Shown: piece after piece, positions 3,672 to 45,023 of the stretch
How the letters are laid out: each line of letters starts with the position of its first letter
Position numbering within the stretch: the stretch's first letter is position 1
DNA from: Candidatus Onthocola stercorigallinarum
Lineage (GTDB): Bacteria; Bacillota_I; Bacilli_A; RF39; UBA660
Length of the DNA stretch: 54,740 bases
NCBI GenBank assembly: GCA_018715145.1
Contig: DVMD01000095.1
Span: 1 to 54,740, forward strand
Direction: 5' to 3'
Position numbers and translations under genes: made by a program
Notes under the pieces: generated by a model
Seen by the model: the letters and a program-made list of their open reading frames with translations, nothing else
The model's database searches: none
Told to the model about the DNA's origin: nothing

Positions 3672-3757
3672 TACAACCTCCAAAGTTATATTTTATTATA
3701 TATAATCCTTAAAACATTTTCAAGTATTCATGCATAAAATACCATAGGTGATTTTTC

Positions 3758-3841
3758 ATGATTATTAGTTATACTGATACCGAAAGAGATTTACTAGCTA
3801 GAATAATGCGAGCTGAGGCTTTATCAGAAGGAAAGTCATAG
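3758..3841 (+). pseudogene. cwlJ: 5' fragment of a cwlJ/sleB-type spore cortex-lytic hydrolase gene, interrupted by the prophage
   Basis: AGGTG RBS, then ATG at 3758. It encodes MIISYTDTERDLLARIMRAEALSEG, then two phage-derived codons (KS) and TAG. DLLARIMRAEA..EG is the conserved N-terminal motif of Hydrolase_2 (CwlJ/SleB catalytic domain) proteins. Confidence 0.8.
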
Positions 3842-3849
3842 TTAGTATG
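3818..3849. other. attL of the prophage (core CAGAAGG at 3825-3831 plus the phage-side half-site CATAGTTAGTATG at 3837-3849)
   Basis: GCTTTATCAGAAGG (3818-3831) matches GCTTTACCAGAAGG (42573-42586) at 13 of 14 positions. Host cwlJ coding sequence lies on the left and phage DNA on the right. Confidence 0.8.
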
Positions 3850-3872
3850 TTTATAAAGATTCTGTTATTAAT

Positions 3873-4199
3873 ATGAAAAGTAAAAGAACTAAAGCAACTG
3901 ATATACCAATGTCAGTAAAAAAGAAAGTATTTGAGCGGGATCATGGTAGATGTGTAGTATGTGGTAATAGTTATAATGTTATGCCCAATGCACATGTGCT
4001 TTCACGAGCACATTCAGGCAAAGGAATAGAAACTAATGTAGTTACCTTATGTACCAATCTAACGCCAAATAAATGCCATTACAAATTTGACAACGGTACT
4101 AAAGAAGAAAGACAATTTATATTAGATAAGATTACTAAATATATGAAATCTATTTATGGGGATGATTGGAATATTGAAGACCAGAAATATAAAAAATAG
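3873..4199 (+). CDS. Small HNH/zinc-finger nuclease-like protein at the extreme left end of the prophage
   Basis: 108 aa with ERDHGRCVVCG ... NAHVLSRAH ... NVVTLC...NKCH (HNH-type beta-beta-alpha-metal signature with Cys pairs). It is the only plus-strand gene at this end, co-directional with the truncated cwlJ fragment and 31 nt downstream of it. Confidence 0.6.
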   Translation: MKSKRTKATDIPMSVKKKVFERDHGRCVVCGNSYNVMPNAHVLSRAHSGKGIETNVVTLCTNLTPNKCHYKFDNGTKEERQFILDKITKYMKSIYGDDWNIEDQKYKK

Positions 4200-4202
4200 C
4201 AT

Positions 4203-4237
4203 AAAAAAAGAACCTAGCCAAAATGACTAGGTTTTTA
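4203..4237. terminator. Bidirectional intrinsic terminator between convergent genes
   Basis: AAAAAAAG-AACCTAG-ccaaaatga-CTAGGTT-TTTTATT: a 7-bp stem flanked by an A-run and a T-run. Confidence 0.6.
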
Positions 4238-5095
4238 TTATTCTTGAAATCCGTACTTCTTAAGAGATTCTAAAGTAATAGGTCCAAAATATCCATCAAC
4301 AGTAGAATCATAGTTGCCTTCGAGTTTTGCTCTTCTTTGAAACTCTTTAATACTAGATTTTATATAAGGGCCATAAAATGGACCTAAAGCCTTTTCACTA
4401 GTGTATTTAGGAAAAGTTTTTAACATAAATTCAGCTATTCTATTTATGTTTGGATGTTCATCGCCATCTTTAAAATAGCCTAAGCCACCAAAGAAATCTT
4501 CTGTTGGTTCTTCGCTAATTTCTTCAGTTGGCATTTCCTTGAAATTGATTCCAGCATTATCTACGATTTCGGTTACAGACTTATCTACATAGAATACATC
4601 TTCAGGTTTTTGTGTGCCTTCTTTAGTTGTAAGAACCCAAAATTCATTACCTCCGACAACTTGCTTAGCCCAACCAGTTCCGCTAAGTTCGCCAAATCCA
4701 GCACAAACATGGTTATGATGTCCTGTAGAATTTGCATCTACCGCTTCGCTAACAACTTTTTGTCCTTGTTTGAAAGCATCTCCGACTTTAAGAACATTAA
4801 ATTCGCTAGCAGATATATGAGCGATTAAGATACTAACAATTTTATCCCCGCTAGGAGTCCTTACTTTATCTGTAGAAGTAATCCAAATATAATTAGAAAC
4901 AGCATCATATTTCCTTACTATTTTACAATCAAATGGTGCTATGAAGTATCCACCACTTCCTGCAGCACCATAAGTTTCGTCTACTGGATAATCTTTTTGA
5001 ATACTTGTAGTATGTCTTTTATGATTTCCTTCATTATAGCCTTGGCTTATTCTCATTTTATTTGCAAAATATTTTGAATATTGCATATTATTCAC
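4238..5095 (-). CDS. Endolysin: N-terminal peptidase-like catalytic domain (M23/LytM-like, tentative) plus C-terminal PG_binding_1 domain
   Basis: 285 aa. The C-terminus (IKEFQRRAKLEGNYDSTVDGYFGPITLESLKKYG) fits the peptidoglycan-binding repeat pattern. The N-terminal part has a His-rich motif, STGHHNHVCAG. The gene lies next to the holin at the prophage end. Confidence 0.7.
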   Translation of the reverse strand: MNNMQYSKYFANKMRISQGYNEGNHKRHTTSIQKDYPVDETYGAAGSGGYFIAPFDCKIVRKYDAVSNYIWITSTDKVRTPSGDKIVSILIAHISASEFNVLKVGDAFKQGQKVVSEAVDANSTGHHNHVCAGFGELSGTGWAKQVVGGNEFWVLTTKEGTQKPEDVFYVDKSVTEIVDNAGINFKEMPTEEISEEPTEDFFGGLGYFKDGDEHPNINRIAEFMLKTFPKYTSEKALGPFYGPYIKSSIKEFQRRAKLEGNYDSTVDGYFGPITLESLKKYGFQE

Positions 5096-5539: not shown

Positions 5540-6168
5540 CTACCTTTCTCATTTATCATATCTTCGAGTTGTTCTTCAATAAAGAATTTTAAACGAAGTA
5601 TTTCTTGCTTTCCGTGTTCATCTATTGAGTATTTGTTTTTAACAAATTGTACTGCTAAAAATCCAATAGGTTCATTGCTTTTATTATTTAAAACAATATC
5701 ATAAAATGAATTAATGTTTTGACTCTTTTTTAATTGATATGTACTAGGCATAATTTCCTTTATTGAATCTAATTCTTTCACTTCCAAATATCCATCGTTT
5801 AACAATTGAGAAATAAATTTCGATAAACAACTTAATGGAATAGATTGTAATTGATTTTGTTTTGGAGCAATGCTATTTCTAATAACTTCATAAGAGCAAC
5901 TCGTTTTTAAAGCGCTTCTTCCATTTGCATAGTGACCACCATTATGAAAGTCATAAACCTGTACACGATCAGCATTTAAATATTCTTTTAATGAATCCAT
6001 TTTTTCGATTATAATATTATCATAAATTGCTTGTTTCCTAATTTTATTAGGTAATGTTTCAACCTCTTTTCTTGTATTTTTATAAACCTTTATAACAGCT
6101 ACCGTAACAGCTCCTATTGCGGTAATAAGGAGCGCTAGTCCAGTTATAAAATTCGCTATATTTTCTAT
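5536..6168 (-). CDS. Membrane-anchored GAF-like domain protein; probable non-AUG (ATA) start
   Basis: The track ORF 5536-6000 has a GAF-like pattern (ADRVQVYDFHNGG..., IPLS, EPIGFLAVQF). The frame stays open 56 codons further upstream and encodes a clear TM helix, FITGLALLITAIGAVTVAVI. An AGGAGG at 6177-6182 lies 8 nt upstream of an ATA codon at 6168. There is no in-frame ATG, GTG or TTG in this extension. Confidence 0.45.
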   Translation of the reverse strand: MENIANFITGLALLITAIGAVTVAVIKVYKNTRKEVETLPNKIRKQAIYDNIIIEKMDSLKEYLNADRVQVYDFHNGGHYANGRSALKTSCSYEVIRNSIAPKQNQLQSIPLSCLSKFISQLLNDGYLEVKELDSIKEIMPSTYQLKKSQNINSFYDIVLNNKSNEPIGFLAVQFVKNKYSIDEHGKQEILRLKFFIEEQLEDMINEKGR

Positions 6169-9199: not shown

Positions 9200-11101
9200 T
9201 TAATCATCTCCCATGTAAAAGAAGCCAATTCCTATTCCGTAATTTGGATCATCCGTTATCTCTATACGCCAGTCTCCACCAACATGATTATTTCCAATCA
9301 TTAAATATGTTCTAACTAGCAAATTGGCGGTTCTAACTATTGATTGTAATAAAGTCGAATCATACCCAGCATATAACAATTCAGAATCAACATTCCCAGT
9401 TTTATCCGTTACTGTAATTCCGTCTGTATCTGCATTGAATTTTGTTGGTGAATTTGTTTCGTCAATGTCCAAACCATCATCGCTAAATGTGAAACCTTTA
9501 TCAGTTTTTAAAATCGGTACACCATTTGCTAATGTTTCCTCAATTACATTTATTGATAATTCCGTAGAATTTTGAAGAGTTTGTACAGTATTAGTTAATT
9601 GAGTTACACTTTCGGCGGTAGCTAATCCATTCATTTTATCCAATGTATCTTGATAGTTGTTATTTGCCATTGCTGCATTGTTGTCTATTTGATTTTGTAA
9701 ATCATTAAGAGTCGGGTCAATGTCTTCGGTAAATTTGTACCAATTATAATCATCAAAATTGGTACTATCTGCTTCTGTAAAATCCACATATTGTCCTATA
9801 TAAGCACTAGGTTTTTCACCTTCCGAATAAGAATCATCAGCTGGAGTAAATGTTTGTCCATCTTCAGAATACTTAATATGAAGATATGATGTTTGTCCAT
9901 TTTCACCAGCTACTCCCGGACTTCCGTTTTGTCCATCAGTACCTTTTATTAAGCTCCAAGTATAATCAGTGTTTGATGTTGGTGCAGTAGAACTTGTTGT
10001 ACTTACTACACCCATGTATTTACTATTTTCATTAGGAGTTGTAGTCATTGGATTACCATCAGAATTTATTGAATATCTTATATAGAAATATGAAGATGTT
10101 CCTGCTTCTCCAGGTGGTCCTTGTATACCTTGCTCCCCAGGTTCACCTTGAGGACCTTGTGGTCCAGTATCTCCTGGATCACCAGTAATTTCTTCTTCTG
10201 CAGAATATGTGACAGTTCCATCCACATAAGTTGTCTTATTTCGTCTTAATACAATTTGACCTTCTTGCCTATTCGGAAATGTTGTAGACCACTCATCGGA
10301 AGATCCTTGTATTTTATATTCTGAAGTTATGCTAGCGACTGTATCATCAACTTTACCTTCCAAAGTTTCAACTTTAGTGGTAACTGAACTAACACTTCCT
10401 CTTATGCTTTCTGCAGTTGTTTCCAATGCCACTTTAGTTGCATAATCTGTTTCAACTGTTTTTTTAAATTGATCTAAAACCGCTTTAACATTCATTGCGT
10501 AGGTATCATCGGTATATTTAGTAGCGATTATCCAATCCACTTCATTATATTCGCCACTTGAGCGACTAGCTCGACATCTGTATAAGTCAGCATTATCTTT
10601 AAACCAAATATCCCCGACATCATAAGGCGGTGTTGGAGTAGTAACAAAAACTCTTCTTTTACTATCCGCAGTATCTTGTGCTGCATTTGCCAACGCTAAT
10701 GCTTCTGTTACATCTGAATCAGTCAATTTTAGCCAACTATATATATTGTTTTCTAAAGAAAATCGATAAGCATATCCTGTATCCTTATCGTAGTATAAAT
10801 CTCCTAAATGATTTGCTTTATCTTCTTCTGTTATCCAGTCAATAGCAGGACTATTTTCTAATGTAGGAATACCAGAAAAAAACCAAGTAGAAATGTTTCC
10901 ATCTACCTGGTCTTGTAAATTACTGATATCTTCTAAAACCTCTTTCACATAATTTTCTAAATTAGTATTGGTTTTAGTTAAATTGTCATTAAGAGTAGCT
11001 ATTGCTTTTTTGCTTCGGTTTATCTCTTCTAAATTATATCTTCTTATTAAGTCTTCAGCAGTAACTGCTTTAGTTTTATCATTATAACTTACCATTACCA
11101 A
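9200..11101 (-). CDS. Tail fibre with a collagen-like Gly-X-Y segment
   Basis: 633 aa. It contains GDPGDTGPQGPQGEPGEQGIQGPPGEAG (nt ~10100-10190), followed by two repeats of a YxxI(R/K)YS...DY.W module. Confidence 0.7.
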   Translation of the reverse strand: MVMVSYNDKTKAVTAEDLIRRYNLEEINRSKKAIATLNDNLTKTNTNLENYVKEVLEDISNLQDQVDGNISTWFFSGIPTLENSPAIDWITEEDKANHLGDLYYDKDTGYAYRFSLENNIYSWLKLTDSDVTEALALANAAQDTADSKRRVFVTTPTPPYDVGDIWFKDNADLYRCRASRSSGEYNEVDWIIATKYTDDTYAMNVKAVLDQFKKTVETDYATKVALETTAESIRGSVSSVTTKVETLEGKVDDTVASITSEYKIQGSSDEWSTTFPNRQEGQIVLRRNKTTYVDGTVTYSAEEEITGDPGDTGPQGPQGEPGEQGIQGPPGEAGTSSYFYIRYSINSDGNPMTTTPNENSKYMGVVSTTSSTAPTSNTDYTWSLIKGTDGQNGSPGVAGENGQTSYLHIKYSEDGQTFTPADDSYSEGEKPSAYIGQYVDFTEADSTNFDDYNWYKFTEDIDPTLNDLQNQIDNNAAMANNNYQDTLDKMNGLATAESVTQLTNTVQTLQNSTELSINVIEETLANGVPILKTDKGFTFSDDGLDIDETNSPTKFNADTDGITVTDKTGNVDSELLYAGYDSTLLQSIVRTANLLVRTYLMIGNNHVGGDWRIEITDDPNYGIGIGFFYMGDD

Positions 11102-26029: not shown

Positions 26030-26454
26030 TTTCTTCTCACTCTCTTCATAGGTTCTTCTAATGCTGGACGATATAAGTATTCATCTTTAATTAAATAATT
26101 GCCTTTCTTTCCACGATCTGAACAATGCTCTCTTTCAAAACAATGCAAAACATCTAGGATATATCTTAAATTGTCCATGTCCAGATAGCCTTTGATATTT
26201 TCGTCTATCATCTCACTTGTTATAGCACTAAACATATCATAATCTTTAGCTTCAATTAAATGAAGATATTGATGGCTTGTTTTTCCGCATAATATAGCTC
26301 CATTACTAATCGTTTCAGGACCACCATTTCTACGGGCAATAATATTATGATGATATGTATATATATCACCTTTTTGTAATGAATACCCACAAAAATCAAA
26401 ACCTAATTTATCAATTTTATATATTTTTATCATATCTTTAACAATTTGTTTCAT
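26026..26454 (-). CDS. HNH endonuclease (terminase-associated type)
   Basis: YTYHHNIIARRNGGPETISNGAILCGKTSHQYLH is an HNH signature. The start is moved to the ATG at 26454 (GGAG RBS). It lies directly upstream of terS, as in cos-type phages. Confidence 0.7.
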   Translation of the reverse strand: MKQIVKDMIKIYKIDKLGFDFCGYSLQKGDIYTYHHNIIARRNGGPETISNGAILCGKTSHQYLHLIEAKDYDMFSAITSEMIDENIKGYLDMDNLRYILDVLHCFEREHCSDRGKKGNYLIKDEYLYRPALEEPMKRVRRK

Positions 26455-26971
26455 TATATCTCCAAATATAACCACCACTGGATTTGATTTTTCCCTTGCA
26501 ACATTCAACTATATGTCGACTTTTGGTTTCTTTTGTTGCTGATCTTATTCCATCCCAAATTTTAATAATATTCATATTCATATCGTACTGAACAACTGAT
26601 TTTTTTAATCTGGTTTTAGATATTTTCAAATTATGATTACCATAATTGTTGTTGTATTTGTATGTACACCATTCCAAATTATTGACATTATTATTTGTTT
26701 TATCTTCATTCTTGTGATTAATACAAGAATAATTGTTTGGATTCTCAATAAAGGCTTGTGCAACTAGCCGATGAATATATTTAACATTTCTTTTCCTATC
26801 TTTCATCAAATACACTATATAATATCCATTACCATTATTACACGGCATTAATATTTTATTTCGCCTTATATATTTTCCACCAGCATACATTTGTAATGAT
26901 TTTACTCTACCATAATTACTAATTTGATATAAGCCTTCAAAACCTTTAATATCTTTCCAAATCTCTCTCAT
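26438..26971 (-). CDS. Free-standing homing endonuclease (NUMOD4 + HNH_3 type)
   Basis: IWKDIKGFEGLYQISNYGRVKS (NUMOD4 motif), HRLVAQAF and INHKNEDKTNNNVNNLEW (HNH). It is a paralogue of 32581-33105. Confidence 0.8.
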   Translation of the reverse strand: MREIWKDIKGFEGLYQISNYGRVKSLQMYAGGKYIRRNKILMPCNNGNGYYIVYLMKDRKRNVKYIHRLVAQAFIENPNNYSCINHKNEDKTNNNVNNLEWCTYKYNNNYGNHNLKISKTRLKKSVVQYDMNMNIIKIWDGIRSATKETKSRHIVECCKGKIKSSGGYIWRYNETNC

Positions 26972-32107: not shown

Positions 32108-32606
32108 ATTCCCTCATCATTCTTTCAAATTCGATATCATCTAAAGTAGGTATTCCGGCGTCTTTGCATTCTTGTTCTAGCCCTCGGATTAATTGAGTAA
32201 ACTCTTTAGTATTTAACTCGCGAGTTCTTTTATAAAACAAATAGTAGTCTCTATCAGCATCAGTTCTATACAACTTAGCATATGGATAATAACTACTTAT
32301 ATCTAACCCTTTAGGAACTATAGCACCAGCAAGTTTGCCATTATCATCTGTTGCTAAAGTTCCGTAAGAGGTATTAATATGAATTTTCATTTCTTCGTCT
32401 GAAATAGCATATCCACTATTTCGATTATATCTAGCAAGTTCATTGATTAATTTATGGAAATATTTGTTTGCTTGTAATCCTCGAACTGTTTTATATTCAT
32501 TTATAACATACACTTTAGATTGGTCTAGGTTAAATAAATACATAGCCAATTCTTTTGGTGTGCCAGATAAAGTTTTATTTCTACTCATATTTCCAAATAT
32601 ATCCAT
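32055..32606 (-). CDS. Recombination-associated protein (NinB/Orf-like, tentative)
   Basis: KTVRGLQANKYFHKLINELARY resembles the NinB-type RSL.QN..YW motif. The start may instead be the ATG at 32588 (MSRNK...). It lies in the recombination module. Confidence 0.3.
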   Translation of the reverse strand: MDIFGNMSRNKTLSGTPKELAMYLFNLDQSKVYVINEYKTVRGLQANKYFHKLINELARYNRNSGYAISDEEMKIHINTSYGTLATDDNGKLAGAIVPKGLDISSYYPYAKLYRTDADRDYYLFYKRTRELNTKEFTQLIRGLEQECKDAGIPTLDDIEFERMMREYEHEREKDKVYENTGLQ

Positions 32607-33105
32607 ATGATTTTTTATATTTTCCTAAACAGCAATATGAAATATCAGCTTTTTTATATCCTAAAGCTCTTTCTATTTCGCTAAGGCTATTCCATCTTTT
32701 AATAAAATTTCTATTTAAATCATATTGGATTACTGGTTTGCAGCCATTCTGTCTTAATTTACATACCGATCTATCTGTTCTTGTACCGTAATTTGAATTA
32801 TACTTTGCATCACACCATTCTAAATTACTTGCATTATTATTACATTTATTTTCGTCTATATGATTTACTTGCAAAAAGTTATATGGATTACAAACAAAGG
32901 CACTTGCTACTAGTCTATGAACTGTCTTCGTCTTTTTTTTATTATTCTTACACAAAGAAACAATAGGATATCCATAATTATCTAAACTTTGCTTAAGAAT
33001 TATTTCGCTAATATGACTTGTTTTTCTTTTTAAACTTTTAATTCTACCAAAATTGCTAACTTGATATAACCCTTCATATCCTTCTACCTCTTTCCAAATT
33101 TCCAT
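32581..33105 (-). CDS. Free-standing homing endonuclease (NUMOD4 + HNH_3 type)
   Basis: IWKEVEGYEGLYQVSNFGRIKS, HRLVASAF and VNHIDENKCNNNASNLEW. It is a paralogue of 26438-26971. Confidence 0.8.
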   Translation of the reverse strand: MEIWKEVEGYEGLYQVSNFGRIKSLKRKTSHISEIILKQSLDNYGYPIVSLCKNNKKKTKTVHRLVASAFVCNPYNFLQVNHIDENKCNNNASNLEWCDAKYNSNYGTRTDRSVCKLRQNGCKPVIQYDLNRNFIKRWNSLSEIERALGYKKADISYCCLGKYKKSYGYIWKYE

Positions 33106-38254: not shown

Positions 38255-38395
38255 TTATTTTGTTTGTGCTATTTGAACTGCAGATTCAGTAGCACTTTTT
38301 GTTTGTTCTAAACCATTAGCAAAAGCTAATACTAGAAATACAATACTCGCATAGAAAAATACCAATGGTAAATATTTATTTACTACTTTTTTCAT
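38255..38395 (-). CDS. Small hydrophobic peptide (46 aa)
   Basis: Hand translation: MKKVVNKYLPLVFFYASIVFLVLAFANGLEQTKSATESAVQIAQTK. The RBS is GGAAAGGAGAAG. Confidence 0.35.
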   Translation of the reverse strand: MKKVVNKYLPLVFFYASIVFLVLAFANGLEQTKSATESAVQIAQTK

Positions 38396-38510
38396 TTTCT
38401 TCTCCTTTCCGTGTTATTTCGATTTCAACACCTAATTTTTCAGCATACATCGTATATAAAAGTCTTATTATATGATCTATCTGCTCTTCCGTAGGTTTTG
38501 TTTTATCCAT
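38376..38510 (-). CDS. Small ORF (44 aa)
   Basis: Hand translation: MDKTKPTEEQIDHIIRLLYTMYAEKLGVEIEITRKGEENEKSSK. A GGAG lies upstream. Confidence 0.25.
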   Translation of the reverse strand: MDKTKPTEEQIDHIIRLLYTMYAEKLGVEIEITRKGEENEKSSK

Positions 38511-38582
38511 AAAAGTTCATCTCCTTATTTAAATTTTATGTTTCATTTTGTCGAAACTTGTGGTTGATTGTTTTTTTTCTTA

Positions 38583-38682
38583 TTCAGATGCTTAAGTGAG
38601 AGCTAAATGTGATAATTGAAAAAATTATTAACAGTTATACTTTTTTTTAGAAAGGAGTTTAGCTCTCGCGTAAGCATCTGAA
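38583..38682. repeat. Long imperfect inverted repeat (25-nt arms, ~50-nt spacer)
   Basis: TTCAGATGCTTAAGTGAGAGCTAAA (38583-38607) pairs with TTTAGCTCTCGCGTAAGCATCTGAA (38658-38682). There is one mismatch and one G:T pair in 25 positions. Confidence 0.85.
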
Positions 38683-41169: not shown

Positions 41170-42552
41170 ATGAATAAAGAAATATATGTGGCAATTTATA
41201 TAAGAGTATCAACTACACATCAAGTTGAGGAAGGTTTTTCTCTTGATGCTCAAGAAAATAAATTAAGACAAATATGTGAATTAAATGGATACAAGATATA
41301 TAAAATATATGCTGACAAAGGAATAAGCGGTAAGGACACTATTCATAGACCAGCATTCCAACAAATGATGGAAGATATGGAGACAGGATTATTTTCTAAA
41401 ATACTAGTCATGAAATTAGATAGAATATCTAGGTCAGTTGCAGATTTAGAAAATATTATTAAGCAATTACAAAAGCATAACTGCGGATTTGAAAGCGCTT
41501 CTGAAAAAATTGATACAACTTCTTCAATGGGATTAATGTTTATACGACTGTTGGGTGTATTTGCTCAATTCGAAAGAGAAAGAATTGCCGAAAGAATTAG
41601 AGATGCATTTGATGAAAAAATCAAACAAGGTGGTGCAGTAACCAGATCATTACCTATGGGATATAAAATTGGAACAGATGATAAAGGCAAGAAAATCGTA
41701 ATCAAAGACATTGAGAAAGAAGAAATAGTTAAAGATATGTTTGATACTTATGAACGGACTAATTCGTTACAAAAAACCGCGGATTATTTAAATGAAAAGT
41801 ATCCTGATAAATTAAATAAATATATGGCTACCGGACAAGGAATAAGTAGAGCATTAGATAGCAAAATGTATTATGGATATTATCGTGGTAACGACAGTTA
41901 CTGCGAACCGTATGTCAGTAAAGAAAGATGGGAACGATTAAACGAAATTAAAAAATCTAAAAATATTAAAGGTTATAAACACACATTCATTTTTAGTGGT
42001 ATACTAAAATCATCTTGTGGACATTATTTAGTAGGTCATTTCTGCCACGGAGAAAATGCTTATCGATGTAAAATTTATTCAACTAACAAAAAATGTTCAT
42101 GCAACTCTGTGCGTGAAAAATATGTTGAAAAGCAGTTCCTAGATAAACTTAACGATTCATTAATAGAATATATTGATAAATACACTATCAAGATATCAAA
42201 TTCTAAATATATTGATAATACCAAAAAAATTAAATCTTTAGAAGAAAAAAAGCAAAAAATAATTAGTTCATTTATTAACGGGTGGATTAATGAAGATGCC
42301 GCAAAATCAGAAATTAATCAAATAGAAGTTTCTATAAAAGAACTTAAAAAAGACAATAAAATAGAAGATATAGAGGCATTAAAAAAGATTATAAATTCAA
42401 ATTGGAGAGAAAAATATAATCACTTTACAAAAGAAGAAAAACAAGCTTTTATAAGAAACTTAAATATAGACTATATCTATATAGATCATGAAAAATATAA
42501 TCAAGGATGGAGGGATAGAAAACCAGAATTTTTAACTATTTATTTCAAATAG
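41170..42552 (+). CDS. Large serine recombinase (phage integrase)
   Basis: 460 aa. It has a resolvase-type N-terminus with the catalytic Ser context AIYIRVSTTHQ and LDRISRS, a recombinase domain, a Cys-rich zinc-ribbon region (SCGHYLVGHFCHGENAYRCKIYSTNKKCSC) and a C-terminal coiled coil. It ends 28 nt before the att core. Confidence 0.95.
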   Translation: MNKEIYVAIYIRVSTTHQVEEGFSLDAQENKLRQICELNGYKIYKIYADKGISGKDTIHRPAFQQMMEDMETGLFSKILVMKLDRISRSVADLENIIKQLQKHNCGFESASEKIDTTSSMGLMFIRLLGVFAQFERERIAERIRDAFDEKIKQGGAVTRSLPMGYKIGTDDKGKKIVIKDIEKEEIVKDMFDTYERTNSLQKTADYLNEKYPDKLNKYMATGQGISRALDSKMYYGYYRGNDSYCEPYVSKERWERLNEIKKSKNIKGYKHTFIFSGILKSSCGHYLVGHFCHGENAYRCKIYSTNKKCSCNSVREKYVEKQFLDKLNDSLIEYIDKYTIKISNSKYIDNTKKIKSLEEKKQKIISSFINGWINEDAAKSEINQIEVSIKELKKDNKIEDIEALKKIINSNWREKYNHFTKEEKQAFIRNLNIDYIYIDHEKYNQGWRDRKPEFLTIYFK

Positions 42553-42560
42553 TTTATTAG

Positions 42561-42586
42561 CATATTAAATATGCTTTACCAGAAGG
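42561..42586. other. attR of the prophage (phage-side half-site CATATTAAATATG at 42561-42573 plus core CAGAAGG at 42580-42586)
   Basis: See attL. Phage DNA lies on the left, and host cwlJ coding sequence resumes at 42587. Confidence 0.8.
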
Positions 42587-42935
42587 CGATCTTGGAATGC
42601 TTATGGTTGGTAATGTTGTTGTAAATAGAGTTTTGGCAGATTGTCTAACTTTTAAAAATATTGATAGTGTCTATGATGCCATTTATCAACCAAATCAATT
42701 TGTAGGAACTAATTCTTCATTATTTAATGCATCTCCAACAACTACAGAAAGAAGGCTAGCTGAACGAATTTTAAGAGGAGAATATTATTATCCTGCAACA
42801 AATGCTTTATGGTTTTATGCCCCATCTGGTAACAGTAGTTGCAAAACAACATGGTATGATCAAGTTCTCGCAGGTAGATATAAAAGTCATTGTTTTTATA
42901 ATCCCGATCCAGGAGTATGTCAAAAAATACATTAA
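42587..42935 (+). pseudogene. cwlJ: 3' fragment of the cwlJ/sleB-type spore cortex-lytic hydrolase gene
   Basis: The in-frame sequence (G)DLGMLMVGNVVVNRVLADCLTFKNIDSVYDAIYQPNQFVGT...ALWFYAP...YYNPDPG follows the Hydrolase_2 catalytic-domain pattern (VG.VV.NRV ... IYQP.QF). It has no RBS or start codon of its own at the junction. Confidence 0.8.
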
Positions 42936-43700: not shown

Positions 43701-45023
43701 TTATTCACTATATATTTTTGTTTCATGGGTCTTTCTTAGAGGTAAATTAACTTTATTATATTCACCCCAATTATATTTATAATCTGGATATAATTTAGTT
43801 CTAATTGGATATTCTCTAGGCATTAATATTAATGCTTCAAAATGATTTAATACTTTTAATTCTTCAACTGTAATTAATGGTTGTATTTTTTTATCAGCTA
43901 AAGTATTACCACAAATTTTAGATATTTCTGTTAAAGTATCATAATCATTAGAAAGTAAATAAATTGTATTTGTAAAACACATTCTAAGTATTTCTGAATT
44001 TTCTTTACCATAAGTATTTTCTAGATCTTTAAAACTTCTGATAATAGCAGTAATACATACCTTATTTCTTCTAATGTTATTTATCAATTTAGAAAAATCT
44101 TTAATAGGAAGTAAATTATCAAAATCATCTAATAAAATATTTAATCTCTTTTTATTATTATCTTCAATTGAATCAATTATTTGATTAATAAATAGAGGAA
44201 TTATATCATTATAGTTTGATGTATTACCACTTAAAATAAAGATTGCTGTTTTTTCTTTTTGAATATCTCTTAAATCAAAATCACTATAATTTAACATATT
44301 AGCTAAATTAACTCTAGTTATATATTTATGCATTCTTAAATTAAATGTAGCAATTATTCCCCCTTTTGTTTCTGCTGGGGCTTTTAAAATAGCTGATAAA
44401 TAATAACTAATAGTTGCTTTGTCTTTTATTTTATCAATAAACTTATCATCTATTTTATTAGCTAAATTATAAATGCTTTCTAAGTTTATTTCATCAGATT
44501 TAGCATTTTCAAATAAATACAAAGCTAAACCAACAAAATAATCTATTGCAGAATTATTCCAAAAACTACTAGCTTCATCACTATCACTAAACAAGTAGTA
44601 TGCGATATTTTCAAGTTCTGTAATAACTTCATCCAAATTATTATTCTTATATAAACTATATGGTAATGTTAAAGGATTCCAATTATTACCATATTTTGCT
44701 TCTTTAAAATCAATAGCAATAACTTTATAACCATTATCATCTAGCATACCACTTAAAGCATTATAAGCTTCCCCACTAATATCATGAATTACAAATGATT
44801 CTCCAGCTTTAATAGAAAGTCTAGCCATTGGTAATATAACCGTTTGACTTTTACCAGAGCCAGTTGAACCAATTACTAAATTATGGCCATCATGCGTATT
44901 AATATAAAAATTATTATTATCATATATCATAGGAAAACCTGATTCATCTAACACCTCCGTTCCATCATAGTTAACTAATTTTTCTTTGAACTTATTATTA
45001 TTTGTCCAATGTGCATATTGCAT
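43701..45023 (-). CDS. VirD4/TraG-family type IV coupling-protein-like ATPase lacking the N-terminal TM region (orphan)
   Basis: 440 aa with Walker A (VIGSTGSGKSQTVILP) and Walker B-like (LNILLDDFDNL) motifs. It has no N-terminal hydrophobic segment and no neighbouring T4SS genes. Confidence 0.65.
   Translation of the reverse strand: MQYAHWTNNNKFKEKLVNYDGTEVLDESGFPMIYDNNNFYINTHDGHNLVIGSTGSGKSQTVILPMARLSIKAGESFVIHDISGEAYNALSGMLDDNGYKVIAIDFKEAKYGNNWNPLTLPYSLYKNNNLDEVITELENIAYYLFSDSDEASSFWNNSAIDYFVGLALYLFENAKSDEINLESIYNLANKIDDKFIDKIKDKATISYYLSAILKAPAETKGGIIATFNLRMHKYITRVNLANMLNYSDFDLRDIQKEKTAIFILSGNTSNYNDIIPLFINQIIDSIEDNNKKRLNILLDDFDNLLPIKDFSKLINNIRRNKVCITAIIRSFKDLENTYGKENSEILRMCFTNTIYLLSNDYDTLTEISKICGNTLADKKIQPLITVEELKVLNHFEALILMPREYPIRTKLYPDYKYNWGEYNKVNLPLRKTHETKIYSE

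Follow-up and report, generated by a model that had tools for sequence, protein, structure and literature searches.

A lineage-wide phage HNH nuclease gene behind the split cwlJ gene of a Candidatus Onthocola stercorigallinarum lysogen, probably placed there by the position of the attachment site

The split host gene and the prophage

The window analyzed here is contig DVMD01000095.1 of Candidatus Onthocola stercorigallinarum, 54,740 nucleotides that make up one whole contig of a 1.27-Mb metagenome-assembled genome (MAG) with a completeness of 83%. It contains a prophage that splits a host gene resembling cwlJ, and the subject of this report is the small phage gene, encoding an HNH nuclease, that lies directly behind the truncated host gene. 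Prophages that split sporulation genes (the skin, SPbeta, gerE and yabG elements) are a classic form of developmental coupling between phage and host, and the question they raise is what times their excision. The host genome carries Spo0A and SpoIVA and, because of this, the organism is presumably a spore former. A preliminary description of this DNA had proposed that the HNH gene, driven by the cwlJ promoter during sporulation, could be the recombination directionality factor (RDF) of the phage or serve another sporulation-timed function. Our analysis favors a different reading, in which the gene is a conserved component of its phage lineage and its place behind cwlJ is incidental.

The truncated 5' part of cwlJ, here called cwlJ', occupies positions 3758 to 3841 on the plus strand. 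From its ATG at 3758 it codes MIISYTDTERDLLARIMRAEALSEG and is host-derived up to 3831, after which the DNA is foreign; two phage-coded codons precede a TAG stop at 3839-3841. The 3' part (42587-42935, plus strand) is the in-frame continuation and matches Hydrolase_2 with 66 bits. When 3758-3831 and 42587-42935 are joined, they encode a 140-residue single-domain Hydrolase_2 protein (Pfam E 3.6e-18), and excision would restore the frame. The joined protein also has a sub-threshold match to SleB, and its single-domain layout is CwlJ-like. This split gene of the cwlJ/sleB type is the sole Hydrolase_2 match in the 83%-complete genome. The same protein is unbroken in 19 congeneric genomes, at 74-98% identity; in two more relatives (G002 and G019) the gene appears to be split, and these cases proved to be contig ends, not insertions.

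Between the two parts lies the genome of a tailed temperate phage (3832-42586, about 38.8 kb), which interrupts the host gene at codon 25. Its attachment sites were defined by comparing both junctions with the intact attB, read as ...GCTTTATCAGAAGGTGATCTTGG in two relatives (L020/L021), and with contigs that carry the attP form (L037 and L078). The left junction, attL (3818-3851), begins with 14 bp that it shares with attR, GCTTTAyCAGAAGG (3818-3831). The crossover lies within CAGAAGG (3825-3831), and the phage P' half-site reaches 3851, with its arm ATAGTTAGTATGTT at 3838-3851. At attR (42559-42586) the phage P arm AGCATATTAAATAT (42559-42572) is followed by the shared core GCTTTACCAGAAGG (42573-42586). 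In L037, attP reads AACATATTAACTAT-20 nt-ATAGTTAATATGTT, with the core in the center of perfect 14-bp inverted arms.

Next to attR, and reading toward it, is the gene of a large serine integrase of 460 residues (41170-42552, plus strand) with Resolvase, Recombinase and Zn_ribbon_recom domains. It matches the integrase family PHROG 95 (E 3e-104), and the nearest solved structure to its catalytic domain is the TP901-1 integrase (E 2.4e-29). From its stop codon it is 27 nt to the first base of the 7-bp crossover core CAGAAGG and 34 nt to the last. The element has two of the marks of a sporulation-gene intervening element, an interrupted frame that can be restored and a serine recombinase gene adjoining an attachment site. 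No close relatives of the phage were found in INPHARED, nor of its integrase in IMG/VR. In other hosts, related serine-integrase phages have entered cwlJ at this position too (L081, 11424-11762; L083, 11430-11762; core CCTGAAGG). On this comparison, cwlJ is a recurrent target of the integrase family in different hosts and beside different flanking genes. Term counts in the retrieved papers on intervening elements gave no mention of cwlJ, a paper on the B. subtilis sigma regulons excepted, and cwlJ is in this sense absent from the targets they name.

The HNH gene and its product

The HNH gene (3873-4199, plus strand) begins 31 nt past the cwlJ' stop, in another frame, and encodes 108 residues that match PHROG 7370, "HNH endonuclease" (E 6.4e-20). 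No Pfam HNH model matches the window copy below 0.01, and PF14279 is present in some of its homologues. There are 482 homologues at E <= 0.001, and the best 120 of the 482 are 65-94% identical to it. In an alignment of 28 homologues the two Cys pairs of a zinc site (C27, C30, C60 and C68) and the active-site residues H41, N55, H69 and D73 are invariant. The AF2 model (pLDDT 88.9) has strands at 36-41 and 56-60 and a helix at 68-74. The catalytic residues, the Cys4 zinc site and the fold all place the protein in the HNH (beta-beta-alpha-metal) superfamily.

Its top Foldseek matches are the HNH domains of EcoKMcrA, TagI, ScoMcrA and IscB. The window protein shares with the EcoKMcrA, TagI and IscB domains the beta-beta-alpha-metal fold, the Cys4 zinc site and the catalytic His and Asn, although the likeness is weak (E about 0.02, TM 0.5). 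Those domains are parts of larger proteins with target-recognition regions, whereas the window protein is a bare domain with a C-terminal helix. The dN/dS ratio of the gene is 0.058-0.21 in all pairs, pairs of cwlJ-targeting phages included. By these measures it is a catalytically intact, functional and presumably expressed gene under strong purifying selection.

A scan of 3758-3873 found no terminator-like site, and the RNA fold of 3740-3900 is no stabler than that of shuffled sequences (z 0.06). The first terminator-like structure is a hairpin with a T-run at 4211-4233, shared by the HNH and endolysin genes, which converge on it; its homologue in one relative (L015) is flagged on both strands. 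The endolysin gene (4238-5095, minus strand), which matches PHROG endolysin families and, weakly, PG_binding_1, is the last gene of the late operon. Every substantial open reading frame (ORF) from 4238 to 38163 is on the minus strand. The preliminary description had read this anatomy well: a cwlJ fragment cut short at 3841, an HNH- or zinc-finger-like ORF 31 nt further on, no hairpin or T-tract between the two, a first terminator just beyond, and the rest of the left part of the prophage on the opposite strand.

The HNH slot in related phages

The position of the HNH gene is conserved in the phage lineage independently of the class of integrase. In contigs with the attP form (L037, L078-80) the serine integrase gene is followed, after 75 nt, by the HNH gene, and in every attP-form contig the two are co-directional across attP. 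HNH orthologues with 68-86% identity are likewise the first gene past attP, and co-directional, behind tyrosine integrases (L019, L038, L015/16, L048, L053 and L183/185). The spacing is 70-76 nt in serine-integrase phages and 200-220 nt in tyrosine-integrase phages. The copies do not sort by integrase: serine-linked copies are 85% identical to each other and 84-86% identical to tyrosine-linked ones, the tree (of low resolution) interleaves the two groups, and the alignment contains no residue peculiar to the serine-linked copies.

The slot is not always filled by the same gene. The P0129 phage has a serine integrase 77% identical to that of the window and, in its own hosts, interrupts cwlJ at the position used in the window (the L081 and L083 insertions above). 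After attP it carries a different, Cys-rich ORF of 151 residues (L082, 3289-3744; L084, 4683-5138) that is without family match. This ORF has an HNH-like CxxC...H...CxxCH pattern, a faint resemblance; to the HNH protein it is about 20% identical (blastp E 0.011, hhalign probability 10%).

In seven of about eight other lysogens in GTDB, the host gene upstream of the HNH gene at the prophage edge is on the opposite strand. Read-through from the host therefore is not the normal route of HNH expression in this lineage, and the idea that the arrangement evolved as sporulation wiring is not supported. In tyrosine-integrase relatives, a consensus scan found no convincing sigma70 promoter belonging to the HNH gene. 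The attP of the closer ones has a core from a tRNA 3' end and tandem arm-type repeats that extend up to the HNH ATG.

These repeats are direct and are probable arm-type integrase sites, for example two copies of AAGAGGTAAA (L015, 560-615; L019, 9950-10000; L011 and L017, just upstream of position 6001). They recur just after the integrase gene, and at the HNH start they double as a sequence resembling a Shine-Dalgarno site. L019 has a perfect 12/12 sigma70 promoter, TTGACA-18-TATAAT, in the P' region of attP (9898-9927, minus strand). It faces the core and the integrase gene, and in a lysogen it would read out into host DNA.

The relatives that bear the HNH gene are found in MAGs labelled uncultured Bacilli, from animal guts, and the phages share a long tape-measure gene and a P22-like portal. 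In the closer relatives with readable context, the HNH gene is found past the lysis module, at the edge of the prophage. Homologues with 55-70% identity lie inside a replication and recombination module, several of them directly after a NinB-like gene and near genes for SSB, a DnaD-like protein and a primase-helicase. The window phage itself carries NinB, Sak, SSB and a PDDEXK nuclease, and no resolvase was recognized among the ORFs searched.

The gap between the HNH and endolysin genes is a variable cargo slot in relatives, where it holds SocA/Panacea-like, Asp-protease-like, PBECR3 and Acb2/Tad1-hairpin genes (L036, 965-2066; L037, 730-1867; L078, 10034-10872; L017, 6340-6977; L014, 2370-2570). 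In the window the HNH gene directly adjoins the endolysin gene, without cargo.

The cwlJ promoter and read-through into the HNH gene

A putative mother-cell-type promoter precedes cwlJ at 3714-3741 on the plus strand. It consists of AC at 3714-3715, a 17-nt spacer and CATAAAATA at 3733-3741, and is followed by the Shine-Dalgarno sequence GGTGA at 3747-3751. In all 11 congeneric upstream regions CATAAAATA lies at a constant distance from the cwlJ ATG. An AC precedes it, in most cases by 16-17 nt, within sequence that has otherwise diverged. The sigmaK consensus is AC-N16/17-CATAnnnTA. We take the cwlJ motif to fit this consensus and to be near that of sigmaE, and the motif suggests that the split gene may be expressed in the mother cell. 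In B. subtilis, cwlJ belongs to the sigmaE regulon (PMC517825).

In the phages with serine integrases, the HNH gene appears to have no private space for a promoter outside attP, because the P' arm extends to 3851 in the window and leaves 21 nt before the HNH ATG. Its transcripts would therefore have to come through the integrase gene when the phage is circular, or through cwlJ when it is integrated. A second sample (L036) contains the identical cwlJ'-HNH junction at attL, with an HNH gene 94% identical to that of the window. Since no terminator intervenes, attP abuts the HNH gene, the promoter is conserved and the junction recurs, we infer that transcripts from the cwlJ promoter are fairly likely to extend into the HNH gene in the lysogen. 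To this extent, and on structural grounds, the expectation that the host promoter would express the phage gene is supported.

Interpretation of the cwlJ'-HNH fusion

The explanation that we favor, at a probability of roughly 55%, is that the HNH gene belongs to the conserved gene set of its phage lineage, that it does not encode the RDF, and that its fusion to cwlJ' is a by-product of the position of attB. The gene encodes a catalytically intact minimal nuclease, conserved in a lineage of temperate tailed phages of uncultured gut Bacilli. In those closer relatives whose contig includes the integrase gene, it comes first past attP on the side away from that gene, reads in the same direction and ends against the lysis module, with a shared terminator in the window and L015. 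The serine integrase inserted the phage at cwlJ codon 25 and so placed the gene 31 nt behind cwlJ'. In the lysogen the most likely consequence is a cwlJ'-HNH bicistronic transcript from the sigmaK/E-type cwlJ promoter to the 4211-4233 hairpin. The protein itself probably takes part in the metabolism of phage DNA, as an endonuclease that nicks or is structure-specific. In its anatomy the fusion to the cwlJ promoter is real, and it recurs in a second sample, yet it is probably incidental.

Several points pull the other way. Phage proteins with a different main task can be scavenged as RDFs by serine-integrase systems (PMC11795197), and the SPbeta RDF gene, sprB, likewise adjoins the 5' fragment of a split gene (PMC4191935). 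Neither in the window nor in the attP forms of serine-integrase phages does the HNH start have a Shine-Dalgarno sequence. The sigmaK/E assignment is a motif match in an uncultured organism, and the biochemical role proposed above is a guess from gene neighborhood.

Another explanation is that the HNH gene senses integration: it would be the last gene of a repressor-integrase unit in the circular phage and be switched off on integration, with read-through from cwlJ negligible or inconsequential. The co-direction of the two genes across attP in every attP-form contig is consistent with this, as are the want of a convincing sigma70-type promoter ahead of the HNH gene even in tyrosine-integrase relatives and the host genes that point away from it in most lysogens. 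However, transcribed attP folds into a long hairpin with a U-rich stretch, which is absent from attL and could halt integrase transcripts before they reach the HNH gene. The conserved cwlJ promoter, moreover, lies only 140 nt upstream with nothing in between to stop transcription. We regard this explanation as rather doubtful.

An extended version would wire the HNH gene to the integration state in both directions. The gene would be transcribed behind the integrase gene in the circle, disconnected on integration, and, in cwlJ lysogens, reconnected to a mother-cell promoter, where it would help the phage to leave before lysis. If so, the nuclease would be made in the sporulating mother cell, for example assisting excision or processing DNA, and the HNH-motif-like ORF of the P0129 phage would reflect selection for a function at the slot. 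We consider this unlikely.

Equally improbable is a role as a defense or exclusion nuclease expressed in lysogeny; the gene would then be a moron of the McrA kind, read from its own cryptic promoter. Such a role would suit a gene at the prophage edge, beyond the lysis genes and antisense to the late operon, adjoining a cargo slot that holds SocA/Panacea, PBECR3 and Acb2/Tad1-like genes in relatives, and the best fold matches are nuclease domains of type IV restriction enzymes (EcoKMcrA, TagI and ScoMcrA). Yet those matches are weak, the 108-residue protein has no target-recognition domain, and PADLOC families gave no match for it. It is also far more conserved than the adjoining cargo, and its more distant homologues belong to replication modules.

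The proposal of the preliminary description, that the HNH protein moonlights as the RDF under the cwlJ promoter, so that the phage excises in the mother cell and cwlJ is whole again by the time the cell requires it, fares worse, and we now find it very unlikely. The geometry permits it, with no terminator and a conserved promoter in a host that by its Spo0A and SpoIVA is presumably a spore former. The compact unit of integrase gene, attP and HNH gene resembles sprA-attP-sprB of SPbeta (PMC4191935), and nucleic-acid enzymes are among the proteins that can be scavenged as RDFs of serine integrases (PMC11795197). An RDF would be expected to be inherited with its cognate integrase and to be absent elsewhere, and the HNH gene does not follow this pattern. 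A protein with 68-86% identity fills the slot beside tyrosine integrases, to whose copies the serine-linked ones are as close as to each other. Conversely, the P0129 phage combines a 77%-identical integrase and the same cwlJ site with another ORF in the slot. The presence of the gene beside tyrosine integrases lowers the odds of an RDF role without excluding it, because RDFs can be scavenged proteins. The catalytic domain of the integrase is nearest to that of TP901-1, whose RDF is small and encoded in the early lytic operon.

The preliminary description had also pointed out that no excisionase or RDF is recognizable elsewhere in the prophage. This observation is correct, as none of 20 small phage ORFs matches an excisionase or RDF family of PHROG. 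It carries no weight, since RDFs of serine integrases lack a common fold (PMC11795197) and more than 15 small phage ORFs are unassigned. An RDF of a large serine integrase would be expected to bind the integrase at the junction of the coiled coil and the zinc domain (PMC11795197).

Finally, a terminase-associated packaging nuclease like HK97 gp74, to which the HNH protein is similar in size and stand-alone architecture (such proteins of about 110 residues serve as packaging cofactors), is extremely improbable and was rejected, as the gene is not beside the terminase genes but 20 kb from them on the other strand, and the T4-like large terminase (Terminase_6N/6C) and P22-like portal point to headful packaging.

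Comparison with known systems

The closest parallel is SPbeta in spsM of B. subtilis, where a prophage that carries a large serine integrase also splits, in frame, a sporulation gene of the mother cell, with the integrase gene at one junction and a small phage gene at the other, by the 5' fragment (PMC4191935, PMC5499854). The product of that small gene, SprB, has 58 residues; the gene is read from a sigmaE/K promoter of its own and, after mitomycin C, also in one transcript with the phage genes upstream. In contrast, the junction gene of the window encodes a 108-residue HNH nuclease, reads away from the junction and has no room for a promoter. It also occurs together with tyrosine integrases.

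With TP901-1 the window shares a short large serine integrase of the type found in phages of Firmicutes, and among solved structures the TP901-1 integrase is the nearest to the catalytic domain of the window's integrase. Orf7, the RDF of TP901-1, is small, and its gene belongs to the early lytic operon. By analogy, the RDF of the window phage would be better sought among the small early ORFs than at attL.

A gene context that changes on integration is also known from the int-sib region of lambda and from the integration-dependent immunity of mycobacteriophages, where, as here, attP lies within a transcription unit. The former acts through an RNase III site and the latter through truncation of the repressor gene. 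Here, by contrast, a whole conserved gene moves from behind the integrase gene to behind a host promoter.

An alternative candidate in the early lytic operon

One small ORF does track the serine integrase. It encodes 44 residues (38376-38510, minus strand), has a strong ribosome-binding site and belongs to the early lytic operon. It is present in four of four serine-integrase lineages (the window, L078/79, L081/83/84 and G041, whose integrase is 49% identical), and was not found in three tyrosine-integrase phages (G042, G043 and L019). No other phage gene follows the serine integrase across lineages in this way. The ORF has no family match, and no relatives were found in IMG/VR or the JGI metagenomes.

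A homologue, P0246, lies in a context of BLIP, membrane-protein and tRNA genes with no phage genes; it adjoins a 546-residue serine recombinase only because the element of that recombinase inserted at the neighboring tRNA gene. Because of such non-phage homologues, and because the leader DNA ahead of it is conserved more strongly than the integrase, the 44-residue ORF is only a weak alternative candidate for the RDF.

The ORF forms a module with a leader of about 100 nt (38511-38620) and a membrane ORF of 46 residues (38255-38395, minus strand), also seen in L165 (1380-1730). The module is conserved at the DNA level even in the phage with the 49%-identical integrase. In the leader, CATAAAATT lies 21 nt ahead of the ATG and partially matches the -10 motif of cwlJ. 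Non-phage members of the family stand beside a tRNA gene (L198-L202). The separate small element at the tRNA gene (L198, 6076-7716; L201; L202) carries the 546-residue serine recombinase, a helix-turn-helix repressor and a primase/VapE-like gene; the recombinase ORF as called continues across the junction into host DNA.

Implications and further features of the window

The obvious RDF candidate of this prophage is a lineage-wide nuclease gene that lies beside attP whatever the integrase. Recognizing this spares a misdirected experiment and redirects the search for the RDF to the early operon. The analysis also records a family of gut-Bacilli phages for which one codon region of cwlJ is a repeated target across hosts, and the conserved arrangement of integrase gene, attP and HNH gene. 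If the read-through is true, the lysogen would be a clean natural case of a phage gene under the control of a sporulation promoter of its host.

Two further HNH genes in the window are of the homing type (NUMOD4, HNH_3 and NUMOD1) and lie at 26438-26971 and 32581-33105, both on the minus strand. One lies shortly before the terminase genes, and the second separates the SSB gene from the NinB gene. Type IV secretion genes are found on both sides of the cwlJ locus (1-1992 and 43701-45023, both minus strand), encoding a TrbL/VirB6-like protein and a VirD4-type coupling protein, and the cwlJ gene may lie in or beside a conjugative element.

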